From Escherichia coli (GTDB lineage Bacteria; Pseudomonadota; Gammaproteobacteria; Enterobacterales; Enterobacteriaceae): DNA of 64,000 nt. The position numbers and the translations under genes are program-made. The notes beneath the pieces are model-generated. The model was not told where the DNA came from and searched no databases. It saw only the letters and a program-made list of their open reading frames with translations. Every line of letters begins with the position of its first letter. Positions within the stretch are counted from its first letter, which is position 1. The stretch lies in assembly GCF_024223415.1 (NCBI RefSeq), contig NZ_CP100500.1. The stretch is one strand, 5' to 3'. This document shows, in pieces, positions 12,364 to 60,972 of the stretch.

Positions 12364-12452
12364 GCCGGATGCGGTGCGAGCGCCTTATCCGGCCTGGGGA
12401 ATGAGCGATTTGTAGGCATGATAAGACGCGTTAGCGTCGCATCAGGCGATGG
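12364..12452. repeat. REP/BIME palindromic repeats between convergent alkA and dgcE
   Basis: gccggatgcggtgcgagcgccttatccggcc and gtaggcatgataagacgcgttagcgtcgcatcaggcg match the REP consensus. Confidence 0.6.
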
Positions 12453-12463
12453 GGAAGCACGCC

Positions 12464-16740: not shown

Positions 16741-16831
16741 GCTTGATAAATTGTGTACCGTTCAGTGATAACCTGGTATGCCCTTGACGTAATTGGCGTT
16801 AAGGGAGTGATGCGCGAAAGGAGAAAATGCC

Positions 16832-17413
16832 ATGCGTCTGTGTGACCGAGATATTGAAGCCTGGCTTGATGAAGGCCGTTTGTCGATCAACCCACGTCCG
16901 CCAGTGGAGCGTATTAACGGCGCGACGGTGGATGTACGCCTGGGCAATAAATTTCGTACCTTCCGTGGTCACACGGCAGCGTTTATCGATCTGAGCGGTC
17001 CCAAAGATGAAGTGAGCGCCGCGCTTGACCGCGTGATGAGCGATGAGATCGTTCTCGACGAGGGCGAGGCGTTCTATCTTCACCCAGGAGAGCTGGCGCT
17101 GGCGGTGACGCTGGAGTCGGTGACGCTGCCAGCCGATCTGGTGGGCTGGCTGGACGGGCGTTCCTCACTGGCGCGTCTGGGGCTGATGGTGCACGTCACC
17201 GCGCACCGCATCGATCCGGGCTGGTCTGGTTGCATTGTGCTGGAGTTCTACAACTCCGGTAAGCTGCCGCTGGCGCTGCGTCCGGGCATGTTAATTGGTG
17301 CGCTGAGCTTTGAGCCGCTTTCCGGCCCGGCGGCGCGACCTTACAACCGCCGTGAAGATGCGAAATATCGCAACCAGCAGGGCGCGGTAGCCAGCCGAAT
17401 CGATAAAGACTAA
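16832..17413 (+). CDS. dcd: dCTP deaminase
   Basis: 193 aa, [23 protein letters not shown]... Confidence 0.95.
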
Positions 17414-44358: not shown

Positions 44359-44532
44359 ATTTGCGACCATTCCTGGAAAAATGGATCCATACTTAGGAAC
44401 AATGCTACTGCAATCCACAACGAAGCGGCGTAACATCACAAGTAATTCAGTAATCAATTCAGGGTAATTGATGCTGGCGAAAAAAATCGAACAAGCTATA
44501 ATTCAGCAACCATTTTACAGGTGGATGAAATA

Positions 44533-45426
44533 ATGACGAATTTAAAAGCAGTTATTCCTGTAGCGGGTCTTGGGATGCATATGTTGCCTGCCACTAAGGC
44601 GATTCCCAAAGAGATGCTACCGATCGTCGACAAGCCTATGATTCAGTACATTGTTGACGAGATTGTGGCTGCAGGGATCAAAGAAATCCTCCTGGTAACT
44701 CATGCGTCCAAGAACGCGGTCGAAAACCACTTCGACACCTCTTATGAATTAGAATCTCTCCTTGAACAGCGCGTAAAGCGTCAATTGCTTGCGGAAGTGC
44801 AGTCCATCTGTCCACCGGGCGTGACCATTATGAACGTGCGTCAGGGCGAACCTTTAGGTTTGGGTCACTCCATTTTATGTGCACGACCCGCCATTGGTGA
44901 CAATCCATTTGTCGTGGTGCTGCCGGACGTTGTGATCGACGACGCCAGCGCCGACCCGCTGCGCTACAACCTTGCTGCCATGATTGCACGATTCAACGAA
45001 ACGGGTCGTAGCCAGGTGCTGGCAAAACGTATGCCGGGTGACCTCTCTGAATACTCGGTCATCCAGACCAAAGAACCACTGGACCGTGAAGGTAAAGTCA
45101 GCCGCATTGTTGAATTTATCGAAAAACCGGATCAGCCGCAGATGTTGGACTCAGACATCATGGCCGTTGGTCGTTATGTGCTTTCTGCCGATATTTGGCC
45201 GGAACTTGAACGCACGCAGCCAGGTGCATGGGGGCGTATTCAGCTGACTGATGCCATCGCTGAACTGGCGAAAACACAGTCCGTTGATGCCATGCTGATG
45301 ACAGGTGACAGCTACGACTGCGGTAAAAAAATGGGTTATATGCAGGCATTTGTGAAGTATGGACTACGCAACCTCAAAGAAGGGGCGAAGTTCCGTAAAG
45401 GGATTGAGAAGCTGTTAAGCGAATAA
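44533..45426 (+). CDS. galF: UTP-glucose-1-phosphate uridylyltransferase homolog GalF
   Basis: ORF track starts at GTG 44521; ATG at 44533 gives [30 protein letters not shown] (297 aa). Confidence 0.95.
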
Positions 45427-45683
45427 TGAAAATCTGACTGGATGTAACGGTTGATAAGAAAATTATAACGGTGGTGAAAATTCGCAGGAAAAGTAACTTG
45501 TTGCGAATATTCCTGCCGTTATTTGATATAAATAACCAGCATAACAACGAGTTAATATTAGGATTTTAGTCAAAGTTTCCTAGGATTTTTCTTGTTTCCA
45601 GAGCGGATTCGTAAGACAATTAGCGCCTTAGTTTTACGGGTTAGCGTGAGTGAGCCATGCTCGTTACATCGCAGGTGTGTATT

Positions 45684-45722
45684 CAGTGTTCTGGTAGCTG
45701 TAAAGCCAGGGGCGGTAGCGTA
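45684..45722 (+). promoter_or_regulatory. JUMPstart with ops element in the O-antigen cluster leader
   Basis: cagtgttctggtagctgtaaagccaggggcggtagcgta; ops core GGCGGTAGCGT. Confidence 0.8.
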
Positions 45723-46450
45723 CATATGAGGAAACATTTCAGCTGAAATAATTGAATATTCCAAAGCATGAGAGTTACTTAATTTGTAAAAGTGCTACAG
45801 TACAATAGAGAGGATCTCTGTCTTCATATTGTTTGCGATCATCTCAGATGAAGTTATTGATTTCATCTTTTAATAGAAGAACTGAATAGAATATGTATGG
45901 CATTATCATTTTGAACAATAATAATAGAATAAAAGGAAGACATCGAAATGGTGGTCAAACATTACATCAGTTCTATTGATTTGACAGCAGAGAAGTCTGC
46001 CACAGCGAACCAAAATTACTGACTCGTAGAGAAGAAGTTGCACTGGCTGCTGAATGGTAATGGATGAAGACGACAGAGAAATAAGAAAAGAAAACTCAGC
46101 AGAATTACCTTCAGGGATATAGCGCATCACTATTTATGTATTGACTAAAGATAAAGCATTTAAGAAAGGTTAAGGTGTAAGGTGTGAAAAGCAGCCATGG
46201 GTAAGGTTCGTTTCGCACAGGCGTTACTTACAGTAGATGGTCGGCACATCGTAAGACTTGGTCTGATTGCCAGATCATATGTGAGACATCAGAAAAAATT
46301 TAAGCAAATATATAAACAGTAGGTGATGTTGTTAAAGTATAAAACAGATATGGTAGTCAAATAAAGCAAAGTATCGTTGGAAAAATATCTGTAAAATCCC
46401 TGGTGCGTTCACGTGAGTTAGAGTAAAAGTAATGAGGAGGTTCTATTTTT

Positions 46451-47551
46451 ATGAGTTTTGAAAATTGGTATATAAAAGATATTGAACCATATAAACTGGC
46501 TAGTCATAAAGTATGGGACGATGTTTGCAACCGAGATATATTAAAATTAGATTGGAATGAAGCAACTATTCCTGCTAGTCCGTATGTAAAGAAAAGAATT
46601 TTAGAAACTATTGATAAAATAGAGTTTAGATATTACCCAAACGTAAACAACATGGAGTTGTTAACAGCTATCGCGGGATATACTCAACTCAACATAGAAA
46701 ATATTCAATATTTTCCAAGTTCTGATGCTGCACATGAATATATAGCATCAGTATTCTTAACATCAGAAGATAGAGTGTTAATATTGTCCCCGACATATGA
46801 TAATTTCAGGCTAACCTGTCAAAGTAGAGGGGCGGAAATATCGTATGTTAATTGTTTTGATGGGGCGTTTCAATTCCAGAGTGAATTATTTATAAATGTT
46901 TTGAAAGAAACAAAGCCTAAAATTGCATATATGTGTAACCCTAACAATCCGACGGGTTCAATAATAAGGCGGGAATATATAAAGAAAATATTAACTCTTT
47001 TTCCTGATATCTTGTTTGTTTTAGATGAGGCTTATATTGAATTTTCATCTGGTTCATGTGGTGATTTTGTTAAGGAATATGATAATTTGATAGTATCAAG
47101 AACCTTCTCGAAGGCATTTGCGCTGGCCAATTTTAGGATTGGTTATATATTGGCTTCACCTAAACTTATAGTTTCAATTAATAAAATAAGAAATTCTAAG
47201 AATGTAACGACATTATCACAAGAGGCTGCAGTTGCTGCATTGCATGATTCTCAATATATGCAAGCTTATGTTAATGAGGTGATTGTAGCGCGACAATACT
47301 TTATTGAAGAGATAAATAGAAGGTTTGGAGATAAGCTGATAGCATATGAAAGTCATGGTAATTTTGTTCTTGTAAAATGCTCCTCGGAAATACTAAAAAA
47401 AACATTAATAAAAGGCCTGGAGGAACAAGATATTTTCATAAGAGATTTGTCACACAAGGAGCTCAATGGTTTACATATAAGGATTACTATTGGAACACGG
47501 ACTCAAATGAGGCAGGTGCTTAATGTTATTGAAAATATTATTGGTCAATAA
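46451..47551 (+). CDS. PLP-dependent class I/II aminotransferase-fold enzyme, HisC/CobD-like
   Basis: 366 aa; motifs CNPNNPTG, DEAYIEF and SRTFSKAFALANFRIGY (candidate PLP-lysine); low-GC codon usage. Confidence 0.8.
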   Translation: MSFENWYIKDIEPYKLASHKVWDDVCNRDILKLDWNEATIPASPYVKKRILETIDKIEFRYYPNVNNMELLTAIAGYTQLNIENIQYFPSSDAAHEYIASVFLTSEDRVLILSPTYDNFRLTCQSRGAEISYVNCFDGAFQFQSELFINVLKETKPKIAYMCNPNNPTGSIIRREYIKKILTLFPDILFVLDEAYIEFSSGSCGDFVKEYDNLIVSRTFSKAFALANFRIGYILASPKLIVSINKIRNSKNVTTLSQEAAVAALHDSQYMQAYVNEVIVARQYFIEEINRRFGDKLIAYESHGNFVLVKCSSEILKKTLIKGLEEQDIFIRDLSHKELNGLHIRITIGTRTQMRQVLNVIENIIGQ

Positions 47552-47587
47552 TATGTTTGCAGGCGCTCTTTATTATGTTGGTCAGCG

Positions 47588-48277
47588 ATGAAATATAAAT
47601 ACGCTTTTTTTGATTTTTGTGAAACGTTGGTGGATTTACAAACTGCTGATGATTACATTTCTGATGTGATTATTAAGAAGGAAGGCCGATGGAGTTATAA
47701 GCTTGCGATTATTGGCTTCTTAAGGAATAGATGGGTTAATAAATTATTTAATAAATTGTTTAACAATTATGATAACCCTAAGTCTTTGATTTTGAAGCTG
47801 GTTAAAGGGTTTGACTATGGGGTCTTTTCTGTTGCTGCAGAAGAATATTGTAAAAAACTAATGGAGTATTACTTAATTGATGATGTTATTTCGGAGATGC
47901 TAGAATTAAAAAAAAAGAATTATCAAATAATCATTGTCTCTGGGGGATATGATATATATATAAAGCATTTTTTTTCCTCAGTTGTAGATAAGGTTATAGC
48001 TACCGAGATTGATTTTTCTGATTCTAAGTGTCTGGGGAAAATATCAGGTATTGATTGTTTAGGTGTGAACAAGTTAAACAAAATAAAGAAATATATTGAT
48101 GTCAACACAATAGATTATGAAAATTCCTACGTCTTTTCTGACAGTAAAACAGATTTGCCTCTTTTTTCGTTAGCAAAGAATAAAATTGTCATATCTAAGA
48201 AAAAAAACAAATCGTGGGTTAATGAGCAAAATGAAGAATTTATTGAAAAAGTATGGTGTCCTAAAAAAATATGCTAA
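47588..48277 (+). CDS. HAD-superfamily hydrolase, probable phosphatase
   Basis: 229 aa; HAD motif I-like AFFDFCETL (second Asp replaced by Cys), motif II IVSGG, motif IV-like FSDSKTDLPLF. Confidence 0.7.
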   Translation: MKYKYAFFDFCETLVDLQTADDYISDVIIKKEGRWSYKLAIIGFLRNRWVNKLFNKLFNNYDNPKSLILKLVKGFDYGVFSVAAEEYCKKLMEYYLIDDVISEMLELKKKNYQIIIVSGGYDIYIKHFFSSVVDKVIATEIDFSDSKCLGKISGIDCLGVNKLNKIKKYIDVNTIDYENSYVFSDSKTDLPLFSLAKNKIVISKKKNKSWVNEQNEEFIEKVWCPKKIC

Positions 48278-49145
48278 GAAGTATTATTACTATACTTCTT
48301 CTTTTTTAATGTCAGATGAATTATATATAAAAAGGAAGTTTAAGAAAATTTTCGGATATGCTTTGGATATCAATAATCCAAAAACAATGAATGAAAAGAT
48401 GCAATGGATGAAGTTACATATGCATCCTCAGGAATATAATATTTTTGCAGATAAACTTCTTGTTAGAAAATACGTGGAAGAAAAGATTGGTAAAAATATA
48501 CTAATACCTATTTTTGCAGTATACGAAAGTGAAGCCGAATTAAATATAGATTCTTTGCCTGACGAACCATTTATCATTAAGACGAATCATGATAGTTCTG
48601 GTGGAATAATCGTGAGAAACAAATCAGAACTCAATATAAAGGATGCAAAAAGTTTTTGTCGATTTAATTTGAATAACAATCATTATTATATATCAAGAGA
48701 GAAACATTATAAACATTTAGACAGAAAAATTATTATAGAGAAGCTCCTTCTTACAAAATCCGGAAAAATCCCAAATGATTATAAAATAAATTGTATAAAT
48801 GGGCGTGCTGAATTTATATATTGCTCTATTGATAGAGAGGGGAAAAATTACCGAAAGATTTATGACAGGTCTTGGTGTGAAATGGATTTTAAATGGGGAA
48901 ATAAAGATGAGTTTGAGCATAAATTTACTGGGCCCAATATTGAAAAGCCTGATAATTTAGATAAAATGATTGAGTATGCGGAGATATTATCAATGGGGTT
49001 TCCTTATCTAAGAATAGATTTATACAATGTTGATGGGGAAATATATTTAGGAGAAATAACTATTTATCATGGGGGAGGGTTTGATGTTATTGAGCCAAAA
49101 GAATATGACTTATTTTTTGGTAATAAGATTCATTTAGAAAAATGA
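48222..49145 (+). CDS. TupA-like ATP-grasp amidoligase (start uncertain; ORF track begins at TTG 48186)
   Basis: N-terminal NPKTMNEKMQWMKL matches the conserved P-x-TFNEKIQWLK region of TupA-like ATP-grasp proteins; overlaps the upstream HAD ORF by 56-92 nt in another frame. Confidence 0.7.
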   Translation: MSKMKNLLKKYGVLKKYAKKYYYYTSSFLMSDELYIKRKFKKIFGYALDINNPKTMNEKMQWMKLHMHPQEYNIFADKLLVRKYVEEKIGKNILIPIFAVYESEAELNIDSLPDEPFIIKTNHDSSGGIIVRNKSELNIKDAKSFCRFNLNNNHYYISREKHYKHLDRKIIIEKLLLTKSGKIPNDYKINCINGRAEFIYCSIDREGKNYRKIYDRSWCEMDFKWGNKDEFEHKFTGPNIEKPDNLDKMIEYAEILSMGFPYLRIDLYNVDGEIYLGEITIYHGGGFDVIEPKEYDLFFGNKIHLEK

Positions 49146-50362
49146 AAAATATTATAAAGAATGGGCTGTCTCTTTCTTTTATAAAGGCAGTGACTTTGCT
49201 ATTTCCTATCGCCATTGTACCTATCCTGATATCAAAGATAGGAATGGATAAATATGGGGAAGTTGTATTTATCACTGCAATATATTCATATTTTATTAAT
49301 GTGGTTAGCTTTGGATTTGAAGAATCAGCCACTCAAGTCTTGGCAAAGAATCACTTCTCAGGTTTGTCGAAAAATGAATATATTTTGTCTGTTATCGTGC
49401 TCAAGGGCATAATTGCTGTTTCTATAATTTTTGTCATTTGTGGTTTGTATTTTTTGGGGATGGGAGGAGATTTTTTCTCATTGCTATTTTGTATTACCAT
49501 CGTCGCTGAGGTTTTTAATCCCTTATGGTTTTATCAGGGGGTCGAAAGAATTCATATTATCTCAGTGAGCTCTATAGTATCAAAATCATTATATACAATA
49601 TTAATATGTCTGTTTGTGAGATGTAATAATGATTATTACCTTGTTCCTGTATTTTTAGGCGGTGCGAATATTCTTTCTTATGTCTATCCGTTTGTTGCTA
49701 TGTGTAATGAGTGTAAATTTCGGCGCAATGACTTGAACTATAATAATTTGAAAAAAGTATTATTAGACTCAGTTAGTATATTCCTTACTAATTTTATCCC
49801 AACATTGAAAGATAAGATAGGTGCTATATTGATAGGTTTATCTTTCTCCATGAATATCGTAGCGATTTATGATATAATTATAAAAATACTTAATTTATTG
49901 TTTATTCCAGTAAATGTAATAAATGCATCGTTCTATCCAACACTTTCCAGGAAGAGAGAAAAGAAAATATTAATGCAATTAATGTATATAAATTTGGGTT
50001 ATGCTATTTTTGCATTTGTTATCGTATGTAATTTTTTTGATTATTTTTCCAATATCTACTTCCAATCCTATTCAGCGTATTCCGATGCTGTAAAAATAAT
50101 ATCTGTGTCTGTTGTTTTTTACTCAGTGAGTTTAATGATTGGAAAAAATATCCTATTGGTCACTGGTTTTTATCATCATGTGCTGCTCAGTATTATATTA
50201 TCGACAGGATTTTATTTGATGTTTGTCTGCTTTATGTATTCTCTTAGTTCATTGAGTATATATTCATTATGCTTTTTAACAACAGCATCATTCTTATTTG
50301 AAATGCTGGTTAGGTTAATTATGTTAAAGAAGACTAAGGCCTTGTTTTTTTTTAAATATTAA
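49142..50362 (+). CDS. wzx: O-antigen flippase Wzx
   Basis: 406 aa polytopic membrane protein, MOP-family-like; ATGA overlap with the upstream gene. Confidence 0.8.
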   Translation: MKNIIKNGLSLSFIKAVTLLFPIAIVPILISKIGMDKYGEVVFITAIYSYFINVVSFGFEESATQVLAKNHFSGLSKNEYILSVIVLKGIIAVSIIFVICGLYFLGMGGDFFSLLFCITIVAEVFNPLWFYQGVERIHIISVSSIVSKSLYTILICLFVRCNNDYYLVPVFLGGANILSYVYPFVAMCNECKFRRNDLNYNNLKKVLLDSVSIFLTNFIPTLKDKIGAILIGLSFSMNIVAIYDIIIKILNLLFIPVNVINASFYPTLSRKREKKILMQLMYINLGYAIFAFVIVCNFFDYFSNIYFQSYSAYSDAVKIISVSVVFYSVSLMIGKNILLVTGFYHHVLLSIILSTGFYLMFVCFMYSLSSLSIYSLCFLTTASFLFEMLVRLIMLKKTKALFFFKY

Positions 50363-50376
50363 TTAGGTATGGAAGT

Positions 50377-51246
50377 ATGAAAACAGTGTCAGTAATCATT
50401 CCAACATATAGGGATTGGGAAAGATTATCTAAATGTTTAAATGCAATAAAAAAACAAAGATATCCCGCAGAGTTTATTCAGGTAATAGTCATTAATAATG
50501 ATCCATTTGATGATAATCCATTTATAAATAGTGATGAATATAAAAATGTAAAGTTTTTAGTAGAGGGAAAGGTGGGTTCTTATGCAGCAAGAAATAAAGG
50601 CCTAAATTATGCAAAAGGGGAGATTATAGCATTCACTGATTCAGATTGTGTCCCAGATGAGTTTTGGATTTCAAATGCTGTTCGACATTTTGAAGAAAAT
50701 AGTAAATGCACAAGAATTGGTGGGAAAATTGAATTATTTTTCAAAGGTAATGTAAGTAAAACCCTAGCTGAATTTTATGAACAAAGTTATGCTTTCCGGC
50801 AGAAAGAGTTTGTTCAACGACAGGGAATGGCTGCAACAGCTAATATGTTCTCATATAAGAAGGTTTTTGATGATATATCATATTTCAATGATTCATTGAT
50901 GTCGGGAGGAGATGCCGAATGGGGAGTTAGGGCAAATAATAAAGGATATAGAATAGACTATTGTGATTCTGTCACTGTTTATCATCCGGCAAGAGAATCG
51001 ATGAAACAAATTTTTATAAAAAATCGAAGGGAAGCCAGTGGTAAAATAAAAAATAAACGAAAAGTGTTAATCAATTTTGTAATGTCATTGCTCCCACCAT
51101 TAAAATCGTTGATGTATATTAGGTATCATGGGAATAGTATATATAAAGTATTAATTGCATTTTTTATTAGATATTTAATGAGGATTGATACGGCTATAGA
51201 ACAAATCCGGGTTGTGTTTTTTAATAAGAAAGCCGAGCGATTATGA
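50377..51246 (+). CDS. Glycosyltransferase family 2
   Basis: 289 aa; VSVIIPTYRDWERLSKCLNAI and FTDSDC motifs. Confidence 0.8.
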   Translation: MKTVSVIIPTYRDWERLSKCLNAIKKQRYPAEFIQVIVINNDPFDDNPFINSDEYKNVKFLVEGKVGSYAARNKGLNYAKGEIIAFTDSDCVPDEFWISNAVRHFEENSKCTRIGGKIELFFKGNVSKTLAEFYEQSYAFRQKEFVQRQGMAATANMFSYKKVFDDISYFNDSLMSGGDAEWGVRANNKGYRIDYCDSVTVYHPARESMKQIFIKNRREASGKIKNKRKVLINFVMSLLPPLKSLMYIRYHGNSIYKVLIAFFIRYLMRIDTAIEQIRVVFFNKKAERL

Positions 51247-52487
51247 AAATGTTTTTTTTTGTTCTTTGCGTGTTCTTTTTAATAAATGGCTTTTATATAT
51301 ATCCGCCATTTAATAGTGCAATTTTAGCACCGATGTTAGCTTTATTGGGAGCACTAACATTAAGGAAGAAAATAACGATAAAGCCCTTTTCTGACTTGTT
51401 AGATCCTTCATTTTTATTTTGGTTTCTTTTTGTAAGTTGTTATTGTCTATCAATTGCAGTTTTCTCAAAAACATATGACTTATCATATGTAAAGAACTTT
51501 ATATCACAACTTGTTCAATTTGCTATTATTTTATTTAGTTTTTTTATGTTATCATCAATAGATGGAGCATTTTCTCTTAAGATAGAAAAAATTATCGTAT
51601 ATAGCTTCGTTTTACAATCTGTTATTCAGATAGCAGCATTTCTATATCCTGGAATAGCCGATATTATTCATTTATTTTATGATAAAGATAAAGTAGAGCG
51701 ATTATACATCAATTACGCAGGAGTAAGAGGACTGGCGTTGACTGGTTCCCCAGGGTGGGGAATATCTGTTGGATATGCTATATCATTTTTACTTTTTGTT
51801 AAAGCATTTGTTATTAATCAGAAATTGAAGTTTTCTAGTATTATAGTTGCAATACTACTTTTAATCGGTGCAATGTTTACTGGTCGCAGTGCTTTTATTG
51901 GTGTTATTTTCGGTGGGGGGTATTATCTTGTATCAGGAGAGGATATTACAAAAAAAATCAAAACTATAATTCTATTTTTAATTCTTCCTGCATTAATATG
52001 CATGTTAACATATATAATGTTGCCATCCCTATCCTCACTATTCGGAGATAAGGTTTTCCCATTTGTCTTTGAGTTCTATTATAAATACAAAGACACAGGT
52101 GAGTTATCTACTAAATCTACAGATATTTTGTTGAATATGTGGGATCTTAACGTTGATGTTACTGACATTGTGTTCGGTACAGGTAATTTCACAAATGACA
52201 AAACTGGAGAGTATTATTTCGGTAGTGATGTGGGATATCTCCGGAATTTATTGTATGGTGGTTTTTTTTGGATGTTCACTCTTTTTATTTATCAGGTTTC
52301 ATTATTTGGACAACTGCGTTGGTGGAAAAAAAGAAAGGATATTAAATTATTTGTATTCATTTTTATAGCCATGTTAATGTTGCTTGAGATGAAAGCAATG
52401 GCCATAGGATATAATAAATATGTGTTTACAGTTTCTATTTTATTAGGATTGTCATTTAAAGAGAGATACAGAAATGCTTACCAATAA
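51243..52487 (+). CDS. wzy: O-antigen polymerase Wzy
   Basis: 414 aa, about 10-12 predicted TM segments with a large loop; no similarity to Wzx; position. Confidence 0.7.
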   Translation: MKMFFFVLCVFFLINGFYIYPPFNSAILAPMLALLGALTLRKKITIKPFSDLLDPSFLFWFLFVSCYCLSIAVFSKTYDLSYVKNFISQLVQFAIILFSFFMLSSIDGAFSLKIEKIIVYSFVLQSVIQIAAFLYPGIADIIHLFYDKDKVERLYINYAGVRGLALTGSPGWGISVGYAISFLLFVKAFVINQKLKFSSIIVAILLLIGAMFTGRSAFIGVIFGGGYYLVSGEDITKKIKTIILFLILPALICMLTYIMLPSLSSLFGDKVFPFVFEFYYKYKDTGELSTKSTDILLNMWDLNVDVTDIVFGTGNFTNDKTGEYYFGSDVGYLRNLLYGGFFWMFTLFIYQVSLFGQLRWWKKRKDIKLFVFIFIAMLMLLEMKAMAIGYNKYVFTVSILLGLSFKERYRNAYQ

Positions 52488-53385
52488 AGTCTCTGTTGTT
52501 ATTCCGACACATAGTCGGCCTAATCTTTTGCGAAAAGCTATAGAAAGTGTTTTGAATCAGACATATAAGCCATGTGAAATTATTGTTGTTGATGATACAG
52601 AATCTGAAGAAACCGCTCGATGTTTATCTGTCATAAATAGCGATATACCTATTAGGCTAAAGTATAACACTTCTTCTGGTGCCGGCTCGTCTAGGAATTT
52701 AGGTGCAAAGATTGCTAATGGTGATTTTGTGGCTTTCTTGGATGACGATGATCTCTGGCTTCCAACTAAATTAGAAACGCAGATGTATGAATTGCGGCAT
52801 ACACAATATGATGCAATTTTTTGTCAGATGATAATAAATTATGAAGGGGTAAACATACAATATTCTACTCGAGCCAAAAATGTAGCTGAACCATTAAAAG
52901 AAATATGTATTGAAAACTTTATTGGTGCCACAATATCCTGTGTTATACGCCGTTCAATTTTTATGAAATTAGGAGGGTTTGATGAAAGATTCAAGGCTAG
53001 AGAGGAATATGATTTATGGATTCGAGTTATTCAATCTAATGCTAAAATTAAAATAATAGAAAAACCATTAACTATTTCAAATCGTTCTTTTGTACGGAAT
53101 CGTATTTCTTCTAACATAAATAATTATGAGCACGGAATATCACTTATTAACGAAAAATATGCTCGATTGATTACTGAAATATTAACTCCCAATGAGAGAA
53201 GAATAAGATTATCGAAACAATATGAATTTCTAGCTGCTCAGGCAATATCTTTAGGCCTTAAAATGACAAGCTCAAAGTATTATTTTAAGTCTTTTTTAAC
53301 AATTCCTTCTCTTAAATCGTTATTTCTTTCATTGTTGAGTATTATTTCTCCGCTAATGATAATAAAAATTAGAAGCAAACTTTAA
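52474..53385 (+). CDS. Glycosyltransferase family 2
   Basis: 303 aa; VSVVIPTHSRPNLLRKAIESVLNQTY and FLDDDD motifs. Confidence 0.8.
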   Translation: MLTNKVSVVIPTHSRPNLLRKAIESVLNQTYKPCEIIVVDDTESEETARCLSVINSDIPIRLKYNTSSGAGSSRNLGAKIANGDFVAFLDDDDLWLPTKLETQMYELRHTQYDAIFCQMIINYEGVNIQYSTRAKNVAEPLKEICIENFIGATISCVIRRSIFMKLGGFDERFKAREEYDLWIRVIQSNAKIKIIEKPLTISNRSFVRNRISSNINNYEHGISLINEKYARLITEILTPNERRIRLSKQYEFLAAQAISLGLKMTSSKYYFKSFLTIPSLKSLFLSLLSIISPLMIIKIRSKL

Positions 53386-53427
53386 TTATATCATCATTAT
53401 TAGACAGTCAATAACTGTGGAGTTAAC

Positions 53428-54690
53428 ATGAGTTCTGGGTTTAATTCTATTGAAAAGAACTTTTCAAGATTTTTATCTTACTTTCCAGGGATAAAAAAAA
53501 TAATTAAAAAAGCTTACATAAGGATAAATTTTTATATCTACAAAAAAGAACATAAAGTAAAAAGTGATTACAGCATCCATACGATTGATATCGATAGTTG
53601 CGAAACTTTTTTTGGATACTATGATAAATGTCCCGATAATGGTAAAGGAGATGTTATCGTTTGTGCATCGACTATATCTACCCACAACATACCTGATCCA
53701 AACAATCCGATTAAATTATATGTGTACAATCTTTGTACTAAAGATAAGGTGTTCATTGCTAATATTTCTGCATATAATTGGCAACAAGGATGTCGTGCTC
53801 ATTGGCTAAACGATGATTTACTTATTTATAACTTTTACTCTCATGAAAAGCGTAATTATTCGTCGAAAATATACTCAATCATAGAGAAAAAACATATAGC
53901 AGAGTTCTCTTTTGCGGTACAAGACAGTTTTCTTGGTAATTATTTTTTATCTATAAACTATTCTCGCTTAATGGCGTTACGCCCAGATTATGGATATAGA
54001 AATAAAAGTTTTTCTTGGGAATTGTTTGATCTGGCTAATGATGGTATATGGAAAGTCGATATTAGCTCTCGTAAGGGAGAATTAATCGTTACATTTTGTG
54101 ATATTATTAATTTTGAGTTTGAAAATAATGATGAGTATAAACATAAAGTTAACCATGTAATGATTTCTCCCGATGGTGAAAAATTTATATTTATACATCG
54201 TTATTATTATAAAGGTAAACGGAATGATAGATTAATGTTGTCAACCAAAGACGGACATTTAATTTCAGTATTAGCTAATAATAAAATGGTTAGTCATTGT
54301 TGTTGGCTTTCCAATGATAAAATTATCGGTTATTTAAGATCTGATAGTGGTGATGATAGTTATTGGGTTATTGATATAAATAATCTGGAGTCATACCAAC
54401 TCTTAGATGGTGAATTACTAAAATATGGCGATGGTCATCCATCGAATTGTAAAAATCTATTAGTGACGGATACATATCCTAATAAGTCAAGATATCAGAA
54501 ATTATTATTAGTCGATATGGATAATGATAATTACCAGGAACTTGGTGAGTTTTTACATGATCTTAGTTTTTCTGATGAGACTAGATGTGACTTACATCCT
54601 CGCTTTTCTCATGATGGCAGCATGATTTTTTTTGATTCAGTTTTTTCTGGAAAACGCAAGTTATGCTATTTACAGTTAATTAATAAATAA
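53428..54690 (+). CDS. Hypothetical protein, possibly beta-propeller-like; function unknown
   Basis: 420 aa, no GT signature recognised; repeated SPDG/SHDG-type strands (MISPDGEKFIFIH, HPRFSHDGSMIFFDS). Confidence 0.55.
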   Translation: MSSGFNSIEKNFSRFLSYFPGIKKIIKKAYIRINFYIYKKEHKVKSDYSIHTIDIDSCETFFGYYDKCPDNGKGDVIVCASTISTHNIPDPNNPIKLYVYNLCTKDKVFIANISAYNWQQGCRAHWLNDDLLIYNFYSHEKRNYSSKIYSIIEKKHIAEFSFAVQDSFLGNYFLSINYSRLMALRPDYGYRNKSFSWELFDLANDGIWKVDISSRKGELIVTFCDIINFEFENNDEYKHKVNHVMISPDGEKFIFIHRYYYKGKRNDRLMLSTKDGHLISVLANNKMVSHCCWLSNDKIIGYLRSDSGDDSYWVIDINNLESYQLLDGELLKYGDGHPSNCKNLLVTDTYPNKSRYQKLLLVDMDNDNYQELGEFLHDLSFSDETRCDLHPRFSHDGSMIFFDSVFSGKRKLCYLQLINK

Positions 54691-54695
54691 AGTGA

Positions 54696-55511
54696 TTGTA
54701 TATGAAAGTCGCAGTCGCAATGTCTGTATATAAGAATGATAATCCTATATACTTAGAGAAAGCCATTAAAAGTATATTGAATCAAACATATAAAAATATC
54801 CATTTATATATAGAGGTCGATGGAGTCATATCTCCACAATTATATCAATGTTTATCCTCTTTTATCTCATGCTCAAATATTAGTATAAATTTTAATAGTG
54901 ATTGTAAAGGATTGGCATTTAGATTAAATAATATTATTGATAAGGTTATATTTGATGGAGGATATTCGTATATTGCAAGAATGGATGCTGATGATATATC
55001 TCGACTCGATAGGATTGAAAAACAAGTAATATTTATGCAGACCCATAAGGATATTTCTGTTGTTGGTTCTGATGTTCTAGAAATAGATGAGGATGATAAT
55101 TTTTTATTTTACAAAAAAATGCATTGTGATCATGAGATCATCGTTCGAGATATTATTAAGAAATGTCCAATAAATCATCCCTCAGCATTTTTTAAAATAT
55201 CTTCATTTTATATAGTTAGATATAATTCCACCTTGAAGAACACACAGGATTATTACTTGTGGATTGATTTTATTTATAATAATTTAAAGATCTCAAACAT
55301 CAATGAGCCTTTGTTAAAATTTAGAGTGAATAGAGATTTTTATTCACGGAGAGGGTTTGATAAAGCTATCAATGATGTAAAATCACGAATATATGCCTTG
55401 CGAAAGTTGAATTGCTATTCACTAAGGAATATATTTCATATATTAATGCTTTTTTTTCTTAGAGTATCTCCGACTGTAATAAAAAAAATTGCATACAATA
55501 GACTTAGATAA
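54696..55511 (+). CDS. Glycosyltransferase family 2-like
   Basis: 271 aa; VAMSVYKNDNPIYLEKAIKSILNQTY and ARMDADDIS motifs; start may be the ATG at 54702. Confidence 0.75.
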   Translation: MYMKVAVAMSVYKNDNPIYLEKAIKSILNQTYKNIHLYIEVDGVISPQLYQCLSSFISCSNISINFNSDCKGLAFRLNNIIDKVIFDGGYSYIARMDADDISRLDRIEKQVIFMQTHKDISVVGSDVLEIDEDDNFLFYKKMHCDHEIIVRDIIKKCPINHPSAFFKISSFYIVRYNSTLKNTQDYYLWIDFIYNNLKISNINEPLLKFRVNRDFYSRRGFDKAINDVKSRIYALRKLNCYSLRNIFHILMLFFLRVSPTVIKKIAYNRLR

Positions 55512-55698
55512 ACTTCATCTACCACGCTATAGTCGGTAAGTGGTCTTCGTTTTTCTTAAAAAAGAAGCAACGTGACATATTTTTCTTTGTTACAGAAATA
55601 TTAAGATATCCATTATCATTTTTTCACATTTGATAAAACTTATCTTATATATCCAATTACATATATATATTGCGATAGAGTCTTGACAGGAGTAAACA

Positions 55699-57105
55699 AT
55701 GTTAAAGCAACAGATAGGTGTTGTCGGTATGGCAGTGATGGGGCGCAACCTTGCGCTCAATATAGAAAGCTGTGGTTATACCGTCTCTATTTTCAACCGT
55801 TCCCGTGAAAAGACGGAAGAAGTGATTGCCGAAAATCCAGGCAAGAAACTGGTGCCTTACTACACGGTTAAAGAGTTTGTTGAATCTCTGGAAACGCCTC
55901 GTCGCATCCTGTTAATGGTGAAAGCAGGTGCAGGCACGGATGCTGCTATTGATTCCCTAAAACCATACCTCGATAAGGGCGACATCATCATTGATGGTGG
56001 TAACACCTTCTTCCAGGACACAATTCGTCGTAACCGTGAGCTTTCTGCCGAAGGCTTTAACTTCATTGGTACCGGAGTTTCCGGCGGTGAAGAAGGTGCG
56101 CTGAAAGGTCCTTCTATTATGCCCGGTGGCCAGAAAGAAGCCTATGAACTGGTTGCGCCGATCCTGACCAAGATCGCCGCAGTAGCTGAAGACGGTGAGC
56201 CATGCGTTACCTACATTGGTACCGATGGCGCAGGCCACTATGTGAAGATGGTTCACAACGGTATTGAATACGGCGATATGCAGCTGATTGCTGAAGCCTA
56301 TTCGCTGCTTAAAGGTGGCCTGAACCTCACCAACGAAGAACTGGCGCAGACCTTTACCGAGTGGAATAACGGTGAACTGAGTAGCTACCTGATCGACATC
56401 ACCAAAGATATCTTTACTAAAAAAGATGAAGACGGTAACTACCTGGTTGATGTGATTCTGGATGAAGCGGCTAACAAAGGTACCGGTAAATGGACCAGCC
56501 AGAGCGCGCTGGATCTCGGCGAACCGCTGTCGCTGATTACCGAGTCTGTGTTTGCACGTTATATCTCTTCTCTGAAAGATCAGCGCGTTGCCGCATCTAA
56601 AGTTCTCTCTGGCCCGCAAGCACAGCCAGATGGCGACAAGGCTGAGTTCATCGAAAAAGTTCGTCGTGCTCTATATCTGGGCAAAATCGTTTCTTACGCC
56701 CAAGGCTTCTCTCAGCTGCGTGCTGCGTCTGAAGAGTACAACTGGGATCTGAACTACGGCGAAATCGCGAAGATTTTCCGTGCTGGTTGCATCATTCGTG
56801 CGCAGTTCCTTCAGAAAATCACTGATGCATATGCCGAAAATCCGAAGATCGCTAACTTGCTACTGGCTCCGTACTTTAAACAAATTGCCGATGATTATCA
56901 GCAGGCGCTGCGTGATGTCGTTGCTTATGCAGTGCAGAACGGTATCCCGGTTCCTACCTTTGCTGCTGCGGTTGCCTATTACGACAGCTACCGTGCTGCT
57001 GTTCTGCCTGCGAACTTGATCCAGGCGCAGCGTGACTATTTTGGTGCACATACTTATAAGCGCATTGATAAAGCAGGTGTCTTCCATACCGAATGGCTGG
57101 ATTAA
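55699..57105 (+). CDS. gnd: 6-phosphogluconate dehydrogenase (decarboxylating)
   Basis: 468 aa; [16 protein letters not shown] Rossmann motif. Confidence 0.97.
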
Positions 57106-57135
57106 TCTGATTTAAATCAATTAATCGATGCAAGG

Positions 57136-57160
57136 CCCGGAGAAATCCTTCGGGTTTTTT
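57136..57160 (+). terminator. Rho-independent terminator after gnd
   Basis: cccggagaaatccttcggg hairpin (7-bp stem with one G-U pair) followed by tttttt. Confidence 0.6.
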
Positions 57161-57349
57161 ATTATACAAAGTGGCAGGTTATGGCTTTTTTATAATTTAT
57201 GGTTAAAAAGCGATATAATACATAGACGCACAGCAGGATTACTGCCTTGACAGTTCATCCGCATCAGCGTTAAAAATCCCGCAGTAGATGAAGATGTGTT
57301 GGTAGATTAATGACCACTCTAAATGTTTAACCGGAAGAAGTCAGAGCTA

Positions 57350-58516
57350 ATGAAAATAACAATTTCAGGAACAGGTTATGTTGGTCTTTCAAATGGTATT
57401 CTGATTGCGCAAAACCACGAAGTGGTTGCACTGGATATCGTTCAGGCCAAAGTGGACATGCTTAACAAGAAGCAGTCACCGATTGTTGATAAGGAGATTG
57501 AAGAGTATCTGGCGACTAAAGATCTCAATTTCCGCGCTACGACAGATAAGTATGACGCGTATAAAAATGCCGATTACGTTATTATTGCCACGCCTACCGA
57601 TTATGATCCGAAAACGAATTATTTTAATACCTCAAGCGTGGAAACGGTCATTCGCGATGTGACAGAAATTAATCCCAGCGCGGTAATGATTATAAAATCA
57701 ACTATCCCTGTTGGTTTTACAGAGTCTATTAAAGAACGGTTTGGTATTGAAAATGTGATTTTTTCGCCGGAGTTTTTACGCGAAGGGAAAGCACTTTATG
57801 ATAACTTGCATCCATCACGCATAGTGATTGGCGAGCAATCTGACCGCGCAGAACGTTTTGCAGCGTTATTACAGGAAGGCGCTATTAAGCAAGACATACC
57901 AATATTGTTTACTGACTCAACCGAGGCTGAGGCGATTAAACTTTTTGCCAATACTTATCTGGCGATGCGTGTGGCTTATTTTAATGAACTAGATACTTAC
58001 GCTGAAAGTCTGGGTCTTAACTCCCGCCAAATTATTGAGGGAGTTTGCCTTGATCCGCGTATCGGTAATCACTACAATAATCCGTCATTTGGTTATGGTG
58101 GTTATTGTCTGCCGAAAGATACTAAGCAGTTACTGGCAAACTATCAGTCAGTACCGAATAACTTGATCTCAGCAATTGTCGATGCCAATCGCACGCGAAA
58201 AGATTTTATTGCCGATTCTATCCTTGCACGTAAACCGAAAGTTGTTGGCGTCTATCGTCTGATTATGAAGAGTGGTTCGGACAATTTCCGTGCTTCCTCA
58301 ATTCAGGGTATTATGAAGCGAATCAAGGCGAAAGGCGTGCCTGTAATCGTTTATGAGCCAGCTATGAAAGAGGACAATTTTTTCAGGTCGCGCGTGGTAC
58401 GTGATCTGGATGCGTTCAAGCAAGAAGCTGATGTTATTATTTCTAACCGTATGTCTGCCGATCTGGCTGATGTAGCAGATAAGGTTTATACGCGCGACTT
58501 GTTTGGCAATGATTAA
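57350..58516 (+). CDS. ugd: UDP-glucose 6-dehydrogenase
   Basis: ORF track 57323..58516; trimmed to [16 protein letters not shown] (388 aa). Confidence 0.95.
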
Positions 58517-58540
58517 TTATTTTGTTTCATACTAAGAAAA

Positions 58541-58564
58541 GGCCCTAATAAATTAGGGCCTTTT
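58541..58564. terminator. Bidirectional terminator between convergent ugd and gla
   Basis: ggccctaat-aa-attagggcc perfect 9-bp inverted repeat, flanked by aaaa upstream and tttt downstream. Confidence 0.6.
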
Positions 58565-58581
58565 CTTATGATTTTGTAAAA

Positions 58582-59586
58582 TCAAACTTTATAGAAGTTA
58601 CGATACCATTCTACAAAGTTCTTTACCCCCTCTTTAACTGACGTTTCAGGTTTGAATCCTATTACGTCATACAGTGCTTTGGTATCAGCACTGGTTTCCA
58701 GTACATCACCGGGTTGGAGAGGCATCATATTTTTGTTGGCTTCAATACCCAGAGCCTCTTCTAACGCATTGATATAGTCCATCAACTCTACAGGCGAACT
58801 ATTACCAATGTTATAGACACGATATGGTGCTGAACTTGTTGCAGGCGAGCCTGTTTCTACAGCCCACTGTGGATCTTTTTCTGGAATAACATCCTGTAAG
58901 CGAATAATAGCTTCGGCAATATCATCAATATAAGTAAAGTCACGCTTCATTTTGCCGAAGTTGTAAACATCAATGCTTTTACCTTCCAACATGGCTTTAG
59001 TAAATTTAAATAATGCCATATCCGGACGTCCCCATGGACCATAAACCGTAAAGAAACGCAGTCCTGTGGTCGGTAAGCCATACAAATGAGAATATGTATG
59101 GGCCATGAGTTCATTCGCTTTTTTAGTTGCTGCATAAAGTGAAACAGGATGATCTACAGAGTCATCTGTAGAGAAAGGCATCATGCGGTTCATACCATAA
59201 ACAGAACTGGAGGAAGCGTAAAGTAGATGCTGAACATTATTATGGCGGCATCCTTCCAGTATGTTCAGGAATCCAATCAGGTTTGCATCTGCATATGCAT
59301 TGGGATTTTCAAGGGAGTAACGTACACCGGCTTGCGCAGCGAGGTTTATTACGCGATCGAACCGCTCCTCTGCAAACAGTGCTGCCATTTTCTCACGATC
59401 GGCCAGGTCAATTTTATAAAAACTGAAATTGTCGTGCTTGAGTAAATCAAGTCGTGCTTGTTTGAGGTTGACATCGTAATAATCATTTAAGTTGTCAATG
59501 CCTACAACCTGATGACCAGCTGCAAGAAGCCGTTTACTTACATAGAAACCGATAAAGCCAGCAGCTCCCGTAACCAGAAATTTCAT
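58582..59586 (-). CDS. gla: UDP-glucuronate 4-epimerase (NAD-dependent SDR epimerase, Gla/CapI-like)
   Basis: 334 aa; [21 protein letters not shown] Rossmann motif and YxxxK (YAATKKANE); position between ugd and wzz. Confidence 0.8.
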
Positions 59587-59752
59587 TTATTATCCTCTCT
59601 CAGGCTTGATTATAGCCAATCTTCATCTGGCATAACTGAAAGTTAAATCATACCGTTAGACAAGAAAAAAAGATAATCGGTATCAGTTCTAAACATGGCT
59701 GTTTTTTCTGGTAACGTGCTCATTTTACAATCAAAGATGTTCTAAACTGACT

Positions 59753-59848
59753 ATACAAGCCGACGTCATTATTTCCAACCGTATGACAGAAGAGCTTAAG
59801 GATGTGGCAGATAAGGTCTACACCCGCGATCTCTTTGGCAGTGACTAA
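59753..59848 (+). pseudogene. ugd: Remnant of a second ugd 3' end (last ~30 codons) downstream of gla
   Basis: Translates to [31 protein letters not shown], near-identical to the C-terminus of the intact ugd ([29 protein letters not shown]). Confidence 0.75.
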
Positions 59849-59994
59849 CATCTTGTTATCAGGGCGATTTTCGCCCTGATTGTCTTATGTTTCCTTTGTA
59901 ATAATTCATTGTTTTTATCATTTATCCTATAGCATTCATGGCGATTATTGCTAAACTATGGCGACTTAAAATTATTTCGTCCGTTAGGGTAATG

Positions 59995-60972
59995 ATGAGA
60001 GTAGAAAATAATAATCTTTCTGGGCAAAACCATGATCCGGAACAGATTGATTTGATTGATTTACTGGTTCAACTATGGCGCGGCAAGATGACTATCATCA
60101 TTTCTGTCATTGTGGCTCTTGCCCTGGCTATAGGGTATCTGGCCGTTGCCAAAGAAAAGTGGACTTCAACAGCTATCGTTACTCAACCTGATGTGGGGCA
60201 AATCGCTGGTTATAACAATGCCATAAATGTGATTTATGGTTCGGCAGCGCCGAAAGTGTCTGAGATCCAGTCGATGTTAATTGGTCGTTTCAGCACGACA
60301 TTTTCTGCATTAGCAGAAACGCTGGATAATCAGGAAGAACCTGAAAAACTGACCATTGAGCCTACCGTTAAAAATCAGTCATTACCTTTAGCGGTTTCTT
60401 ATGTCGGTGAAACACCTGAAGGTGCGCAGAAACAGCTGGCGCAGTATATCCAGCAAGTTGACGACCAGGTAAATGAAGATCTGGAAAAAGACCTGAAAGA
60501 CAACATCGCGCTGCGTATGAAAAACTTGCAGGATTCGCTGAAGACCCAGGAAGTGGTTGCGCAGGAGCAGAAAGATCTGCGTATCCGTCAGATTCAGGAA
60601 GCGTTGCAGTATGCGAATCAGGCGCAGGTGACAAAGCCACAGGTTCAGCAGACTGAAGATGTGACGCAAGATACGTTGTTCCTTTTGGGGAGCGAAGCGC
60701 TGGAGTCGATGATTAAGCATGAGGCGACCCGTCCGTTGGTGTTCTCATCAAACTACTATCAGACACGTCAAAACCTGCTGGATATCGAAAGCTTAAAGGT
60801 TGATGATCTTGATATTCATGCTTACCGCTATGTAATGAAACCGACGTTACCTATTCGTCGCGATAGTCCGAAAAAGGCAATCACCTTGATTCTGGCGGTG
60901 CTGCTGGGCGGCATGGTTGGCGCGGGGATTGTGCTGGGGCGTAACGCTCTGCGTAATTACAACACGAAGTAA
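59995..60972 (+). CDS. wzzB: O-antigen chain-length determinant WzzB (Cld)
   Basis: ORF track 59938..60972; likely start at the tandem ATGs 59992/59995 (MRVENNNLSGQNHDPEQIDLIDLLVQLWRGK); polysaccharide co-polymerase with two TM segments. Confidence 0.92.
   Translation: MRVENNNLSGQNHDPEQIDLIDLLVQLWRGKMTIIISVIVALALAIGYLAVAKEKWTSTAIVTQPDVGQIAGYNNAINVIYGSAAPKVSEIQSMLIGRFSTTFSALAETLDNQEEPEKLTIEPTVKNQSLPLAVSYVGETPEGAQKQLAQYIQQVDDQVNEDLEKDLKDNIALRMKNLQDSLKTQEVVAQEQKDLRIRQIQEALQYANQAQVTKPQVQQTEDVTQDTLFLLGSEALESMIKHEATRPLVFSSNYYQTRQNLLDIESLKVDDLDIHAYRYVMKPTLPIRRDSPKKAITLILAVLLGGMVGAGIVLGRNALRNYNTK

Follow-up and report, generated by a model that had tools for sequence, protein, structure and literature searches.

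A low-GC O-antigen cluster of Escherichia coli with predicted genes for serinol amidation of a uronic acid and a WbgV-like protein, shared with Edwardsiella, Photobacterium and Shewanella

A system for decorating a uronic acid with a small amine is known from the HS:2 capsule of Campylobacter jejuni. Two of its enzymes produce the amine phosphates: Cj1437 is a transaminase that turns dihydroxyacetone phosphate into (S)-serinol phosphate, and Cj1436 a decarboxylase that yields ethanolamine phosphate from phosphoserine. Cj1438, through its C-terminal ATP-grasp domain, forms the amide at the C6 carboxylate of a glucuronic acid (GlcA) already in the chain, and Cj1435, a phosphatase of the haloacid dehalogenase (HAD) type, then removes the phosphate; this order of glycosyl transfer, amidation and dephosphorylation, like the activities of the enzymes, is experimentally established (PMC11800397). 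We analysed the O-antigen genes of the galF-gnd interval in a stretch of 64,000 nucleotides, hereafter the window, from the Escherichia coli contig NZ_CP100500.1 (assembly GCF_024223415.1). Sequence comparisons suggest, with a probability that we estimate at about three in four, that this is a functional and laterally acquired O-antigen cluster for a four-sugar unit containing a serinol-amidated uronic acid and, probably, a rare L-uronic acid; it would represent a rare E. coli O type without an established O number.

A second system of reference is the wbgT-wbgU-wbgV-wbgW segment of Shigella sonnei form I and Plesiomonas shigelloides O17, which contains genes for a dehydrogenase, a 4-epimerase, a C5-epimerase of the WbgV type and an adjacent glycosyltransferase of family 2 (GT2). 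The O unit of S. sonnei contains N-acetyl-L-altrosaminuronic acid (L-AltNAcA), the C5 epimer of N-acetyl-D-galactosaminuronic acid (D-GalNAcA). In the O antigen of E. coli O143/Shigella boydii 8 a uronic acid is amidated by 2-amino-1,3-propanediol (serinol). Amino-acid amides of uronic acids occur in E. coli O91, O110 and O167 (PMC7685785); these antigens share with our prediction the amide-substituted hexuronic acids but, being amides of amino acids, need no genes for amine synthesis. The text of this 2019 review of E. coli O antigens names L-iduronic acid (L-IdoA) only in O112ab and leaves altruronic acid (AltA) and serinol unmentioned (PMC7685785). The serinol amidation of C. jejuni, WbgV of S. 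sonnei and Wzx/Wzy clusters are already known, and the sequence itself is public and partly annotated; new here are the assignment of serinol amidation and of a WbgV-type epimerase to this E. coli O type, and the recognition of a shared cassette. The locus is a new example of known biochemistry and not a new kind of system.

The cluster consists of nine open reading frames (ORFs), all of them intact in the window and with tight or overlapping junctions:

46451-47551, plus strand: pyridoxal phosphate (PLP)-dependent aminotransferase, predicted to convert dihydroxyacetone phosphate to (S)-serinol phosphate (homology to Cj1437)
47588-48277, plus strand: HAD-IB phosphatase, predicted to dephosphorylate a serinol-phosphate amide (homology to Cj1435)
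48231-49145, plus strand: predicted TupA-like ATP-grasp amidoligase of 304 amino acids (aa) (PF14305; start codon as in RefSeq)
49142-50362, plus strand: wzx, O-unit flippase (RefSeq 'oligosaccharide flippase family protein')
50377-51246, plus strand: GT2 (a) (multiple GT2 NCBIfam matches; PF00535 recorded)
51243-52487, plus strand: wzy, O-unit polymerase (RefSeq 'oligosaccharide repeat unit polymerase')
52474-53385, plus strand: GT2 (b) (GT2 NCBIfam matches; RefSeq 'glycosyltransferase family 2 protein')
53428-54690, plus strand: WbgV-family beta-propeller protein of 420 aa, predicted uridine diphosphate (UDP)-hexuronate C5-epimerase (homology)
54702-55511, plus strand: GT2 (c), predicted transferase for the product of the WbgV-like protein (EpsE-like and TuaG-like GT2 matches)

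The initial annotation held that this island contains no dedicated nucleotide-sugar genes and that its repeat is built from housekeeping UDP-sugars together with UDP-uronic acids from ugd and a gla-like epimerase. The first claim is probably wrong, and housekeeping sugars are probably not the only components of the unit, because the 420-aa ORF encodes a full-length homologue of WbgV from S. sonnei (36% identity, E 4e-72, residues 8-416), with all the family motifs kept. We found WbgV through an S. sonnei relative in the AlphaFold DB, whose gene could be located, by a translated search against plasmids, within the O-antigen cluster of form I; its RefSeq product name is 'UDP-GalNAcA C5 epimerase WbgV'. 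We thus consider the gene as probably a dedicated precursor gene for a C5-epimerase. RefSeq lists the 420-aa protein as hypothetical and many of its relatives as 'glycosyl transferase' or 'TolB family'. A search detected 2994 relatives of the protein, with 41-67% identity among the best 120 of the 2994, from organisms as diverse as Vibrio, Pseudoalteromonas, Halomonas, Providencia and Bacteroidales, and around 65 residues are invariant in an alignment of 30 sequences of the family.

Neither a Pfam domain nor a transmembrane segment was detected in the 420-aa protein, and its N-terminus, inspected by eye, does not resemble a signal peptide. In the AlphaFold2 model (predicted local distance difference test score, pLDDT, 90.5), two helices at the N-terminus precede a beta-propeller with the seven-bladed fold of polysaccharide lyase family 22 (PL22), and the best structural neighbours of the model are the PL22 oligogalacturonate lyases (Foldseek, E 9.8e-13). 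At the sequence level, Pectate_lyase22 (PF14583) matched one of 30 relatives (E 0.054) and not the 420-aa protein itself, while a profile search of Protein Data Bank (PDB) sequences with the family retrieved no lyase, only a chance match to a CE2 esterase. A reading of the protein as a lyase was replaced by that of a C5-epimerase after the homology to WbgV was found. Both uronate lyases and C5-epimerases start by abstracting the C5 proton, so the lyase-like fold makes sense for a C5-epimerase.

The neighbourhood of the gene is also that expected of precursor supply. A GT2 gene adjoins the WbgV-like gene in nine out of 11 other loci checked, directly downstream in eight and, in a locus from Clostridia, directly upstream. 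The GT2 gene follows directly, with overlapping or nearly abutting ends, in Edwardsiella tarda, Photobacterium damselae, Moellerella, Providencia, Vibrio, Thiothrix and S. sonnei, and in the window GT2 (c) starts 6-12 bases after the stop codon of the WbgV-like gene. Likewise, an orthologue (52-73% identity) of gla, for a UDP-GlcA 4-epimerase, lies nearby in seven of the 11 loci, with S. sonnei containing instead the analogous 4-epimerase WbgU, and both ugd, for UDP-glucose 6-dehydrogenase, and a gla-like gene are found downstream of the WbgV-like gene in the window. The resemblance to S. sonnei is thus in the set of a dehydrogenase, a 4-epimerase, a WbgV-type protein and an adjacent GT2. The two systems differ in that the partner GT2 proteins are unrelated beyond the family level, S. 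sonnei does not contain an amide module, and its substrate is a 2-acetamido uronate, UDP-GalNAcA. There is no UDP-N-acetylglucosamine (UDP-GlcNAc) dehydrogenase in the E. coli cluster and, therefore, the substrate of a C5-epimerase encoded here must be UDP-galacturonic acid (UDP-GalA) or UDP-GlcA. By analogy with WbgV, its reaction would most likely be that from UDP-GalA to UDP-L-altruronic acid, with that from UDP-GlcA to UDP-L-iduronic acid as the main alternative.

The explanation that competes best with this proposal is that the 420-aa protein does not epimerise nucleotide sugars at C5 and acts as a lyase or trimming enzyme, as a modifier at the level of the polymer or the lipid-linked unit, or as a non-catalytic partner of the adjacent GT2, in which case the antigen would contain only D-GlcA or D-GalA, in line with the initial annotation. 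Its similarity to PL22 lyases in structure, the weak match of one family member to Pectate_lyase22, the naming of the family as 'glycosyl transferase' in legacy annotations and the fact that WbgV is assigned its function by annotation are all compatible with it. We nevertheless consider it unlikely, because the homology to WbgV spans the full length, with the invariant residues indicated above, and because the protein looks cytoplasmic and would not have access to a finished polymer. Additionally, the constant pairing with GT2 and with 4-epimerase or dehydrogenase genes is what would be expected of precursor supply, and the L-AltNAcA of S. sonnei requires such an enzyme in a cluster that has one surplus 'GT'.

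Two other groups of relatives of the WbgV-like protein are worth recording. Several Clostridia proteins of around 800 aa (R6K196, A0A7C6YEU7 and A0A1K1LWC6, in the AlphaFold DB) appear to be fusions of a WbgV-like propeller with a glycosyltransferase of family 1 (GT1). Also, the family includes a second E. coli protein, annotated 'TolB' (A0A0B4N3E3, 420 aa, 32% identity), that may act as C5-epimerase in a different O type, for instance the L-IdoA-containing O112ab.

The first three genes of the cluster had been interpreted as a module for the amide decoration of a uronic acid, and this is supported by their homology to Cj1437, Cj1435 and the C-terminal domain of Cj1438 (Cj1438C). For the comparison with Cj1437 we recovered the C. 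jejuni locus and repaired a frameshift in a poly-G tract, whereas the query sequences of Cj1438C and Cj1435 were taken from the supplement of PMC11800397. The aminotransferase shows 45% identity to the corrected Cj1437 over its full length (272 bits, E 4e-93), as compared to 28% (110 bits) to HisC from the same strain and 25% (69 bits) to Cj1436. It reaches 270.3 bits with the hisC model TIGR01141, below the cutoff of 276.55, and the genome has its own intact hisC in the his operon. The phosphatase aligns with Cj1435 over its full length, with 29% identity (E 9e-23), and scores 64.7 bits with the HAD-IB model TIGR01488 (cutoff 45). An unusual form of motif I, DFCET(L), does not vary among the five sequences aligned, including the representative of the C. 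jejuni Cj1435 cluster, and the motifs VSGG and SDxxxD are shared as well. The ATP-grasp protein, in turn, contains the Pfam domain ATPgrasp_TupA (PF14305, E 3.2e-47) and is 29% identical to Cj1438C over the full domain (E 4e-36). Among solved structures, the aminotransferase matched only generic HisC enzymes, the phosphatase only phosphoserine phosphatases and the ATP-grasp protein none. From these homologies, the module is best read as one that synthesises serinol phosphate, couples it to a uronic acid as an amide at the expense of ATP and then takes off the phosphate, and the predicted amine is most likely serinol.

The locus is thus similar to that of the C. jejuni HS:2 capsule in the clustering of a transaminase, a TupA-like amidoligase and a DFCET-containing HAD-IB phosphatase, and differs from it in several respects. 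The ligase of C. jejuni is the C-terminal domain of a multidomain glycosyltransferase, Cj1438, whereas that of E. coli is a stand-alone protein; C. jejuni has a decarboxylase of the Cj1436 type, with none in the E. coli cluster; and the capsule is exported by an ABC (ATP-binding cassette) transporter, as opposed to a Wzx/Wzy O antigen built on undecaprenyl diphosphate. The acceptor is GlcA in C. jejuni and may be GalA or L-AltA in E. coli. Also, Cj1437 has a phase-variable poly-G tract, while the aminotransferase gene of E. coli has an unbroken ORF and no counterpart of the tract was noted in it, although no specific scan was made. In the C. jejuni contig SRR10500325_27 (2315-2325), a stretch of ten G interrupts Cj1437, as would be consistent with phase variation. 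The phosphatase and ligase genes overlap by 47 bases in E. coli (48231-48277) and also in E. tarda (4787-4833 of its locus), and by around 32-35 bases in P. damselae and Shewanella, which suggests a conserved translational coupling.

In 79 loci that encode a TupA-like ligase, taken from species representatives, a gla-like gene was present in 35 and ugd in 22, and the triad of aminotransferase, HAD phosphatase and ligase in only one (L005, from a Flavobacteriaceae genome). This low frequency indicates that most TupA-like ligases probably attach ready-made amino acids and that the triad marks a serinol-type subset. Of the 120 proteins most similar to the ligase, none is from E. coli or Shigella apart from that of the cluster itself.

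An amine other than serinol would be expected if the PLP enzyme were a decarboxylase like Cj1436 or CobD, leading to an amide of ethanolamine or of 1-amino-2-propanol. The protein does belong to the HisC/CobD superfamily, with a match to TIGR01140 (threonine-phosphate decarboxylase) of E 4e-46 and matches to CobD-type structures of E 1e-14 to 1e-19, and C. jejuni uses both serinol and ethanolamine (PMC11800397). Nonetheless, we find this improbable because the protein is clearly closer to Cj1437 than to Cj1436, scores 270 bits with the hisC transaminase model versus 158 bits with the decarboxylase model, and is the product of the single PLP gene in the cluster.

The composition and gene content described for the island in the initial annotation were confirmed in our analysis. 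The guanine plus cytosine (GC) content in 500-base windows drops from 0.48-0.50 in galF to 0.27-0.36 between 45500 and 55500 and recovers to around 0.50 inside gnd; that of the nine-gene block (46451-55511) is 0.302, compared to 0.528 for positions 1-44500 of the window. All the genes from galF through gnd are on the plus strand, and ORFs, NCBIfam and Pfam matches and RefSeq names agree with the list of genes given earlier for the interval. The ORFs and RefSeq names also agree with the reported absence of rml, manCB, fnl and wec genes between galF and gnd, and include neither gne nor gnu between wcaM and galF. Downstream of gnd, the order in RefSeq is ugd, an epimerase of the short-chain dehydrogenase/reductase (SDR) family on the minus strand, wzzB and the his operon. 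PADLOC defence models gave no matches. The features flanking the nine genes are as follows:

44521-45426, plus strand: galF, upstream boundary (ORF; RefSeq name in the identical region of strain Combat11I9)
45684-45722, plus strand: JUMPstart/ops antitermination element of the O-antigen operon (Rfam RF01707)
45742-46203, plus strand: degraded 3' fragment of a transposase gene of the ISAs1 family (H-repeat) (DNA similarity)
55699-57105, plus strand: gnd, downstream boundary (ORF; RefSeq)
57350-58516, plus strand: ugd, UDP-glucose 6-dehydrogenase, producing UDP-GlcA (RefSeq)
58582-59586, minus strand: gla-like UDP-glucuronate 4-epimerase of the SDR family, producing UDP-GalA (PDB matches)
59755-59940, plus strand: duplicated 3' end of ugd beside the gla insertion (DNA match; partial pseudogene in RefSeq)
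59995-60972, plus strand: wzzB, O-chain length regulator (RefSeq; hydrophobic segments near both termini)

The JUMPstart element scores 56.6 bits with RF01707 (gathering score 35, E 5e-12), and its motif GGCGGTAGCGT is visible in the sequence. Wzx contains about 13 hydrophobic segments, and PF01943 is recorded for the exact protein and for its E. tarda orthologue; Wzy contains about 11 and is 68% identical to its E. tarda counterpart. PF00535 is on record for a protein identical to GT2 (a) and for its E. tarda orthologue. The remaining proteins of the cluster lack hydrophobic segments, except for a weak one at the C-terminus of GT2 (b). From its position between galF and gnd and the presence of JUMPstart, wzx, wzy, three GT2 genes and wzzB, we conclude that this is a genuine, horizontally acquired, Wzx/Wzy-dependent E. 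coli O-antigen cluster. This supports the earlier view of a serotype-defining cluster whose initiating transferase, WecA, is encoded elsewhere, in agreement with the location of wecA directly upstream of the homologous genes of Photobacterium. Of the four to five sugars per repeat proposed earlier, four fits the three GT2 genes plus WecA.

The supply of UDP-GlcA and UDP-GalA by ugd and the gla-like epimerase, both already pointed out in the initial annotation, is supported by RefSeq and by matches in the PDB. The epimerase matches 5u4q, an NAD-epimerase of Klebsiella pneumoniae, with E 1.9e-189, and the chain set 6zl6/6zla, labelled 'Epimerase domain-containing protein' in the PDB, with E 8.6e-43; we take the latter to be the UDP-GlcA 4-epimerase of Bacillus cereus. 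In comparison with the genes beside the corresponding clusters of other genera, ugd is 82% identical to that of E. tarda, and the epimerase is 70-73% identical to those of E. tarda and P. damselae. The gla-like gene was inserted in the interval from ugd to wzzB (58517-59940). Among the 5426 complete genomes of E. coli, 269 have it there (e.g. ETEC6334, 96.7%), and it adjoins a duplicate of the ugd 3' end (59755-59940) that matches, at 88-97%, the ugd 3' end of around 4000 genomes without gla. This shared site and the adjoining duplicate indicate that the gla-like gene is an accessory gene of E. coli, common to several O types and external to the low-GC block.

The biosynthetic pathway that we propose is deduced, in all its steps, from homology and gene order. 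WecA would start the unit by placing GlcNAc-1-phosphate on undecaprenyl phosphate, as suggested by the absence of gnu and by the wecA gene beside the Photobacterium genes, and the three GT2 enzymes would then add three sugars to yield a tetrasaccharide. At least one of the added sugars would be a hexuronic acid, with Ugd supplying UDP-GlcA and Gla UDP-GalA. The WbgV-like protein would invert C5 of a UDP-uronic acid, the probable route being from UDP-glucose through UDP-GlcA and UDP-GalA to UDP-L-altruronic acid, and GT2 (c), encoded directly downstream, would transfer its product. In parallel, the aminotransferase would use glutamate to convert dihydroxyacetone phosphate into (S)-serinol phosphate and, in analogy with C. 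jejuni, the ATP-grasp ligase would join it to the C6 carboxylate of the uronic acid in the cytoplasmic lipid-linked oligosaccharide. The HAD phosphatase would strip the phosphate to leave a neutral serinol amide, after which Wzx might flip the unit, Wzy polymerise it, WzzB set the chain length and WaaL ligate the chain to the core.

Several observations weigh against this interpretation. The enzymatic steps are all drawn from homologues with 29-45% identity. The function of WbgV is taken from its RefSeq product name and, since WbgV acts on an N-acetylated uronate, the substrate assigned to its E. coli homologue is an extrapolation. The acceptor of the ligase could be GalA, GlcA or L-AltA. Wzy reaches only 28.6 bits with TIGR04370, whose cutoff is 40, and was called from its topology, gene position and annotation. 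As to other species, a paper on the O-polysaccharide of E. tarda PCM 1153, cited in PMC5485987, does not include L-altruronic acid in its title. Lastly, the cluster of strain 181.1, described below, is annotated as many fragments, which could be due to assembly indel errors or to real decay.

This last point leads to the possibility that the cluster is decaying or silent and that the strains are rough, which would explain the typing as 'O-'. Strain Combat11I9 is listed as O-:H28, and the annotation of 181.1 shows only fragments of the genes for the HAD phosphatase, Wzx, Wzy, one GT2 and the 420-aa protein. We regard this as very improbable: the integrity of the nine ORFs and of their junctions in the window argues against it, as does the occurrence of the exact Wzx sequence in 255 indexed blocks and 119 contigs. 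Furthermore, 'O-' denotes a genotyping run without a database match and not a phenotype, and the differences of 181.1, at 0.3% of the bases, are consistent with indel errors in the assembly.

Finally, that the module makes histidinol, through a HisC paralogue and a histidinol-phosphatase-like HAD, for the ligase to join to the uronic acid is hardly credible and was rejected, because the near-cutoff score with TIGR01141 and the weak matches of the phosphatase to histidinol-phosphatase models (E 2e-11 to 2e-5) are outweighed by the closer identity of the aminotransferase to Cj1437 than to the strain's own intact HisC, by the full-length and DFCET likeness of the phosphatase to Cj1435, which acts on phosphorylated glucuronamides, and by PMC7685785, which names no histidinol amide for the O antigens of E. 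coli.

The functional cluster with a serinol-amidated uronic acid that we favour is part of a cassette present in other genera. In E. tarda (GCA_048082445.1) all nine genes are collinear, with 64-77% protein identity (64% for Wzx), and are followed by a galF-like gene, galE, ugd and gla, although the cluster occupies a different chromosomal site, after dcuC. P. damselae contains wecA, the nine genes, with 43-68% identity, and then ugd, gla and galU. Homologues of all nine genes are also present in Shewanella sp. 125m-1 (8172-17091), in a rearranged order. In this strain, the WbgV-like gene (31% identity) comes first, the aminotransferase gene lies between two GT2 genes, and an initiating transferase of the Bac_transf type is found in place of wecA. 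The GC content of the cassette is 0.30 in E. coli and in E. tarda, with flanks of 0.56-0.58, and 0.26 in P. damselae, with flanks of 0.38-0.40. Since it is below that of the flanking DNA in each of the three hosts, the cassette is foreign to E. coli, E. tarda and P. damselae alike.

The chemistry of E. tarda offers a point of comparison, because the O-polysaccharide of strain PCM 1153 is described, in the title of the paper cited in PMC5485987, as containing a GalA amide of 2-aminopropane-1,3-diol. As far as that title goes, a serinol amide of GalA has been shown chemically in a species that carries the nine collinear genes with ugd and gla, as expected from our prediction of serinol; the E. 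tarda strain whose genome was compared, however, may not be of the O type of PCM 1153.

Within E. coli, the cluster is carried by only two of the 5426 complete genomes. The region is 100% identical in strain Combat11I9 (NZ_CP021726; from urine, Hong Kong) and 99.7% identical in the turkey strain 181.1 (NZ_CP059907.1), and it is absent from the other 5424, in which a sensitive DNA search with the amine module did not find any similarity. However, the public assembly collection contains the exact sequence of Wzx in 255 indexed blocks, and 119 contigs with it were seen, indicating that the O type is not vanishingly rare outside the set of complete genomes. In strain 181.1 (8162-15243), the genes for the HAD phosphatase, Wzx, Wzy and the 420-aa protein are split or cut, and those for one GT2 and the ATP-grasp ligase are called shorter.

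The identity of the serogroup can be approached only indirectly. A preprint types Combat11I9 as O-:H28, that is, without an O-genotype match, which reveals a typing gap, in that a published genotyping run scores as 'O-' a cluster found both in an isolate from turkey and in a urinary one whose virulence plasmid is of the ColV type. The proteins of the cluster are in UniProt, apparently from 2014, and one of them is called 'Putative O-antigen transporter', which we infer to be a Prokka-style name; DebRoy et al. used Prokka. According to DebRoy 2016, OX6, OX9, OX10, OX21 and OX38 are equal to numbered O groups. OX18 (KJ710507), the only unique OX group with an accession series suggesting a submission in 2014, is by elimination among the DebRoy OX groups a weak and unconfirmed candidate; it is also known with flagellar type H28.

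If correct, our interpretation leads to a testable prediction, namely a backbone of about four sugars started with GlcNAc and containing a serinol-amidated uronic acid and, probably, an L-hexuronic acid, and a structure confirming it would add constituents to those named for E. coli in PMC7685785. The amidation with serinol phosphate known from C. jejuni would then extend to Wzx/Wzy O antigens of Enterobacterales and Vibrionaceae. It is feasible, in a bolder and more tentative version against which the odds are somewhat tilted, that L-altruronic acid, made from UDP-GalA by the WbgV-type enzyme acting on a uronate without an acetamido group, is combined with a serinol amide introduced via phospho-serinol on the lipid-linked oligosaccharide. 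In this version the nine genes would form a mobile cassette of around 30% GC that has moved between E. coli of avian or urinary origin and the fish-associated genera Edwardsiella, Photobacterium and Shewanella, and the WbgV-like family, with its approximately 3000 detected relatives and its lyase-like propeller, would be a general means, mostly unannotated so far, by which bacteria obtain the L-hexuronic acids of their surface glycans. Grouping the 420-aa family with WbgV would improve the annotation of thousands of polysaccharide loci.

The upstream part of the island shows traces that might relate to its acquisition. The spacer of 730 bases between JUMPstart and the first O-antigen gene contains a remnant of an ISAs1-family element (45742-46203), which has around 76% DNA identity to ISAs1-family transposase genes from more than 5000 E. 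coli genomes, matches the 3' part of the K-12 copy and contains no intact plus-strand ORF of at least 60 aa; it is plausibly a scar of acquisition. A scan of the spacer with Rfam retrieved nothing besides JUMPstart, and its alignment with the upstream region of E. tarda was uninformative. In E. tarda, a JUMPstart-like sequence lies only around 100 bases upstream of the first gene of the cassette. At the other end, the coordinates after gnd are shifted by one base with respect to Combat11I9, implying a single-base difference within 55701-57350 that most likely sits in the gnd-ugd intergenic region.

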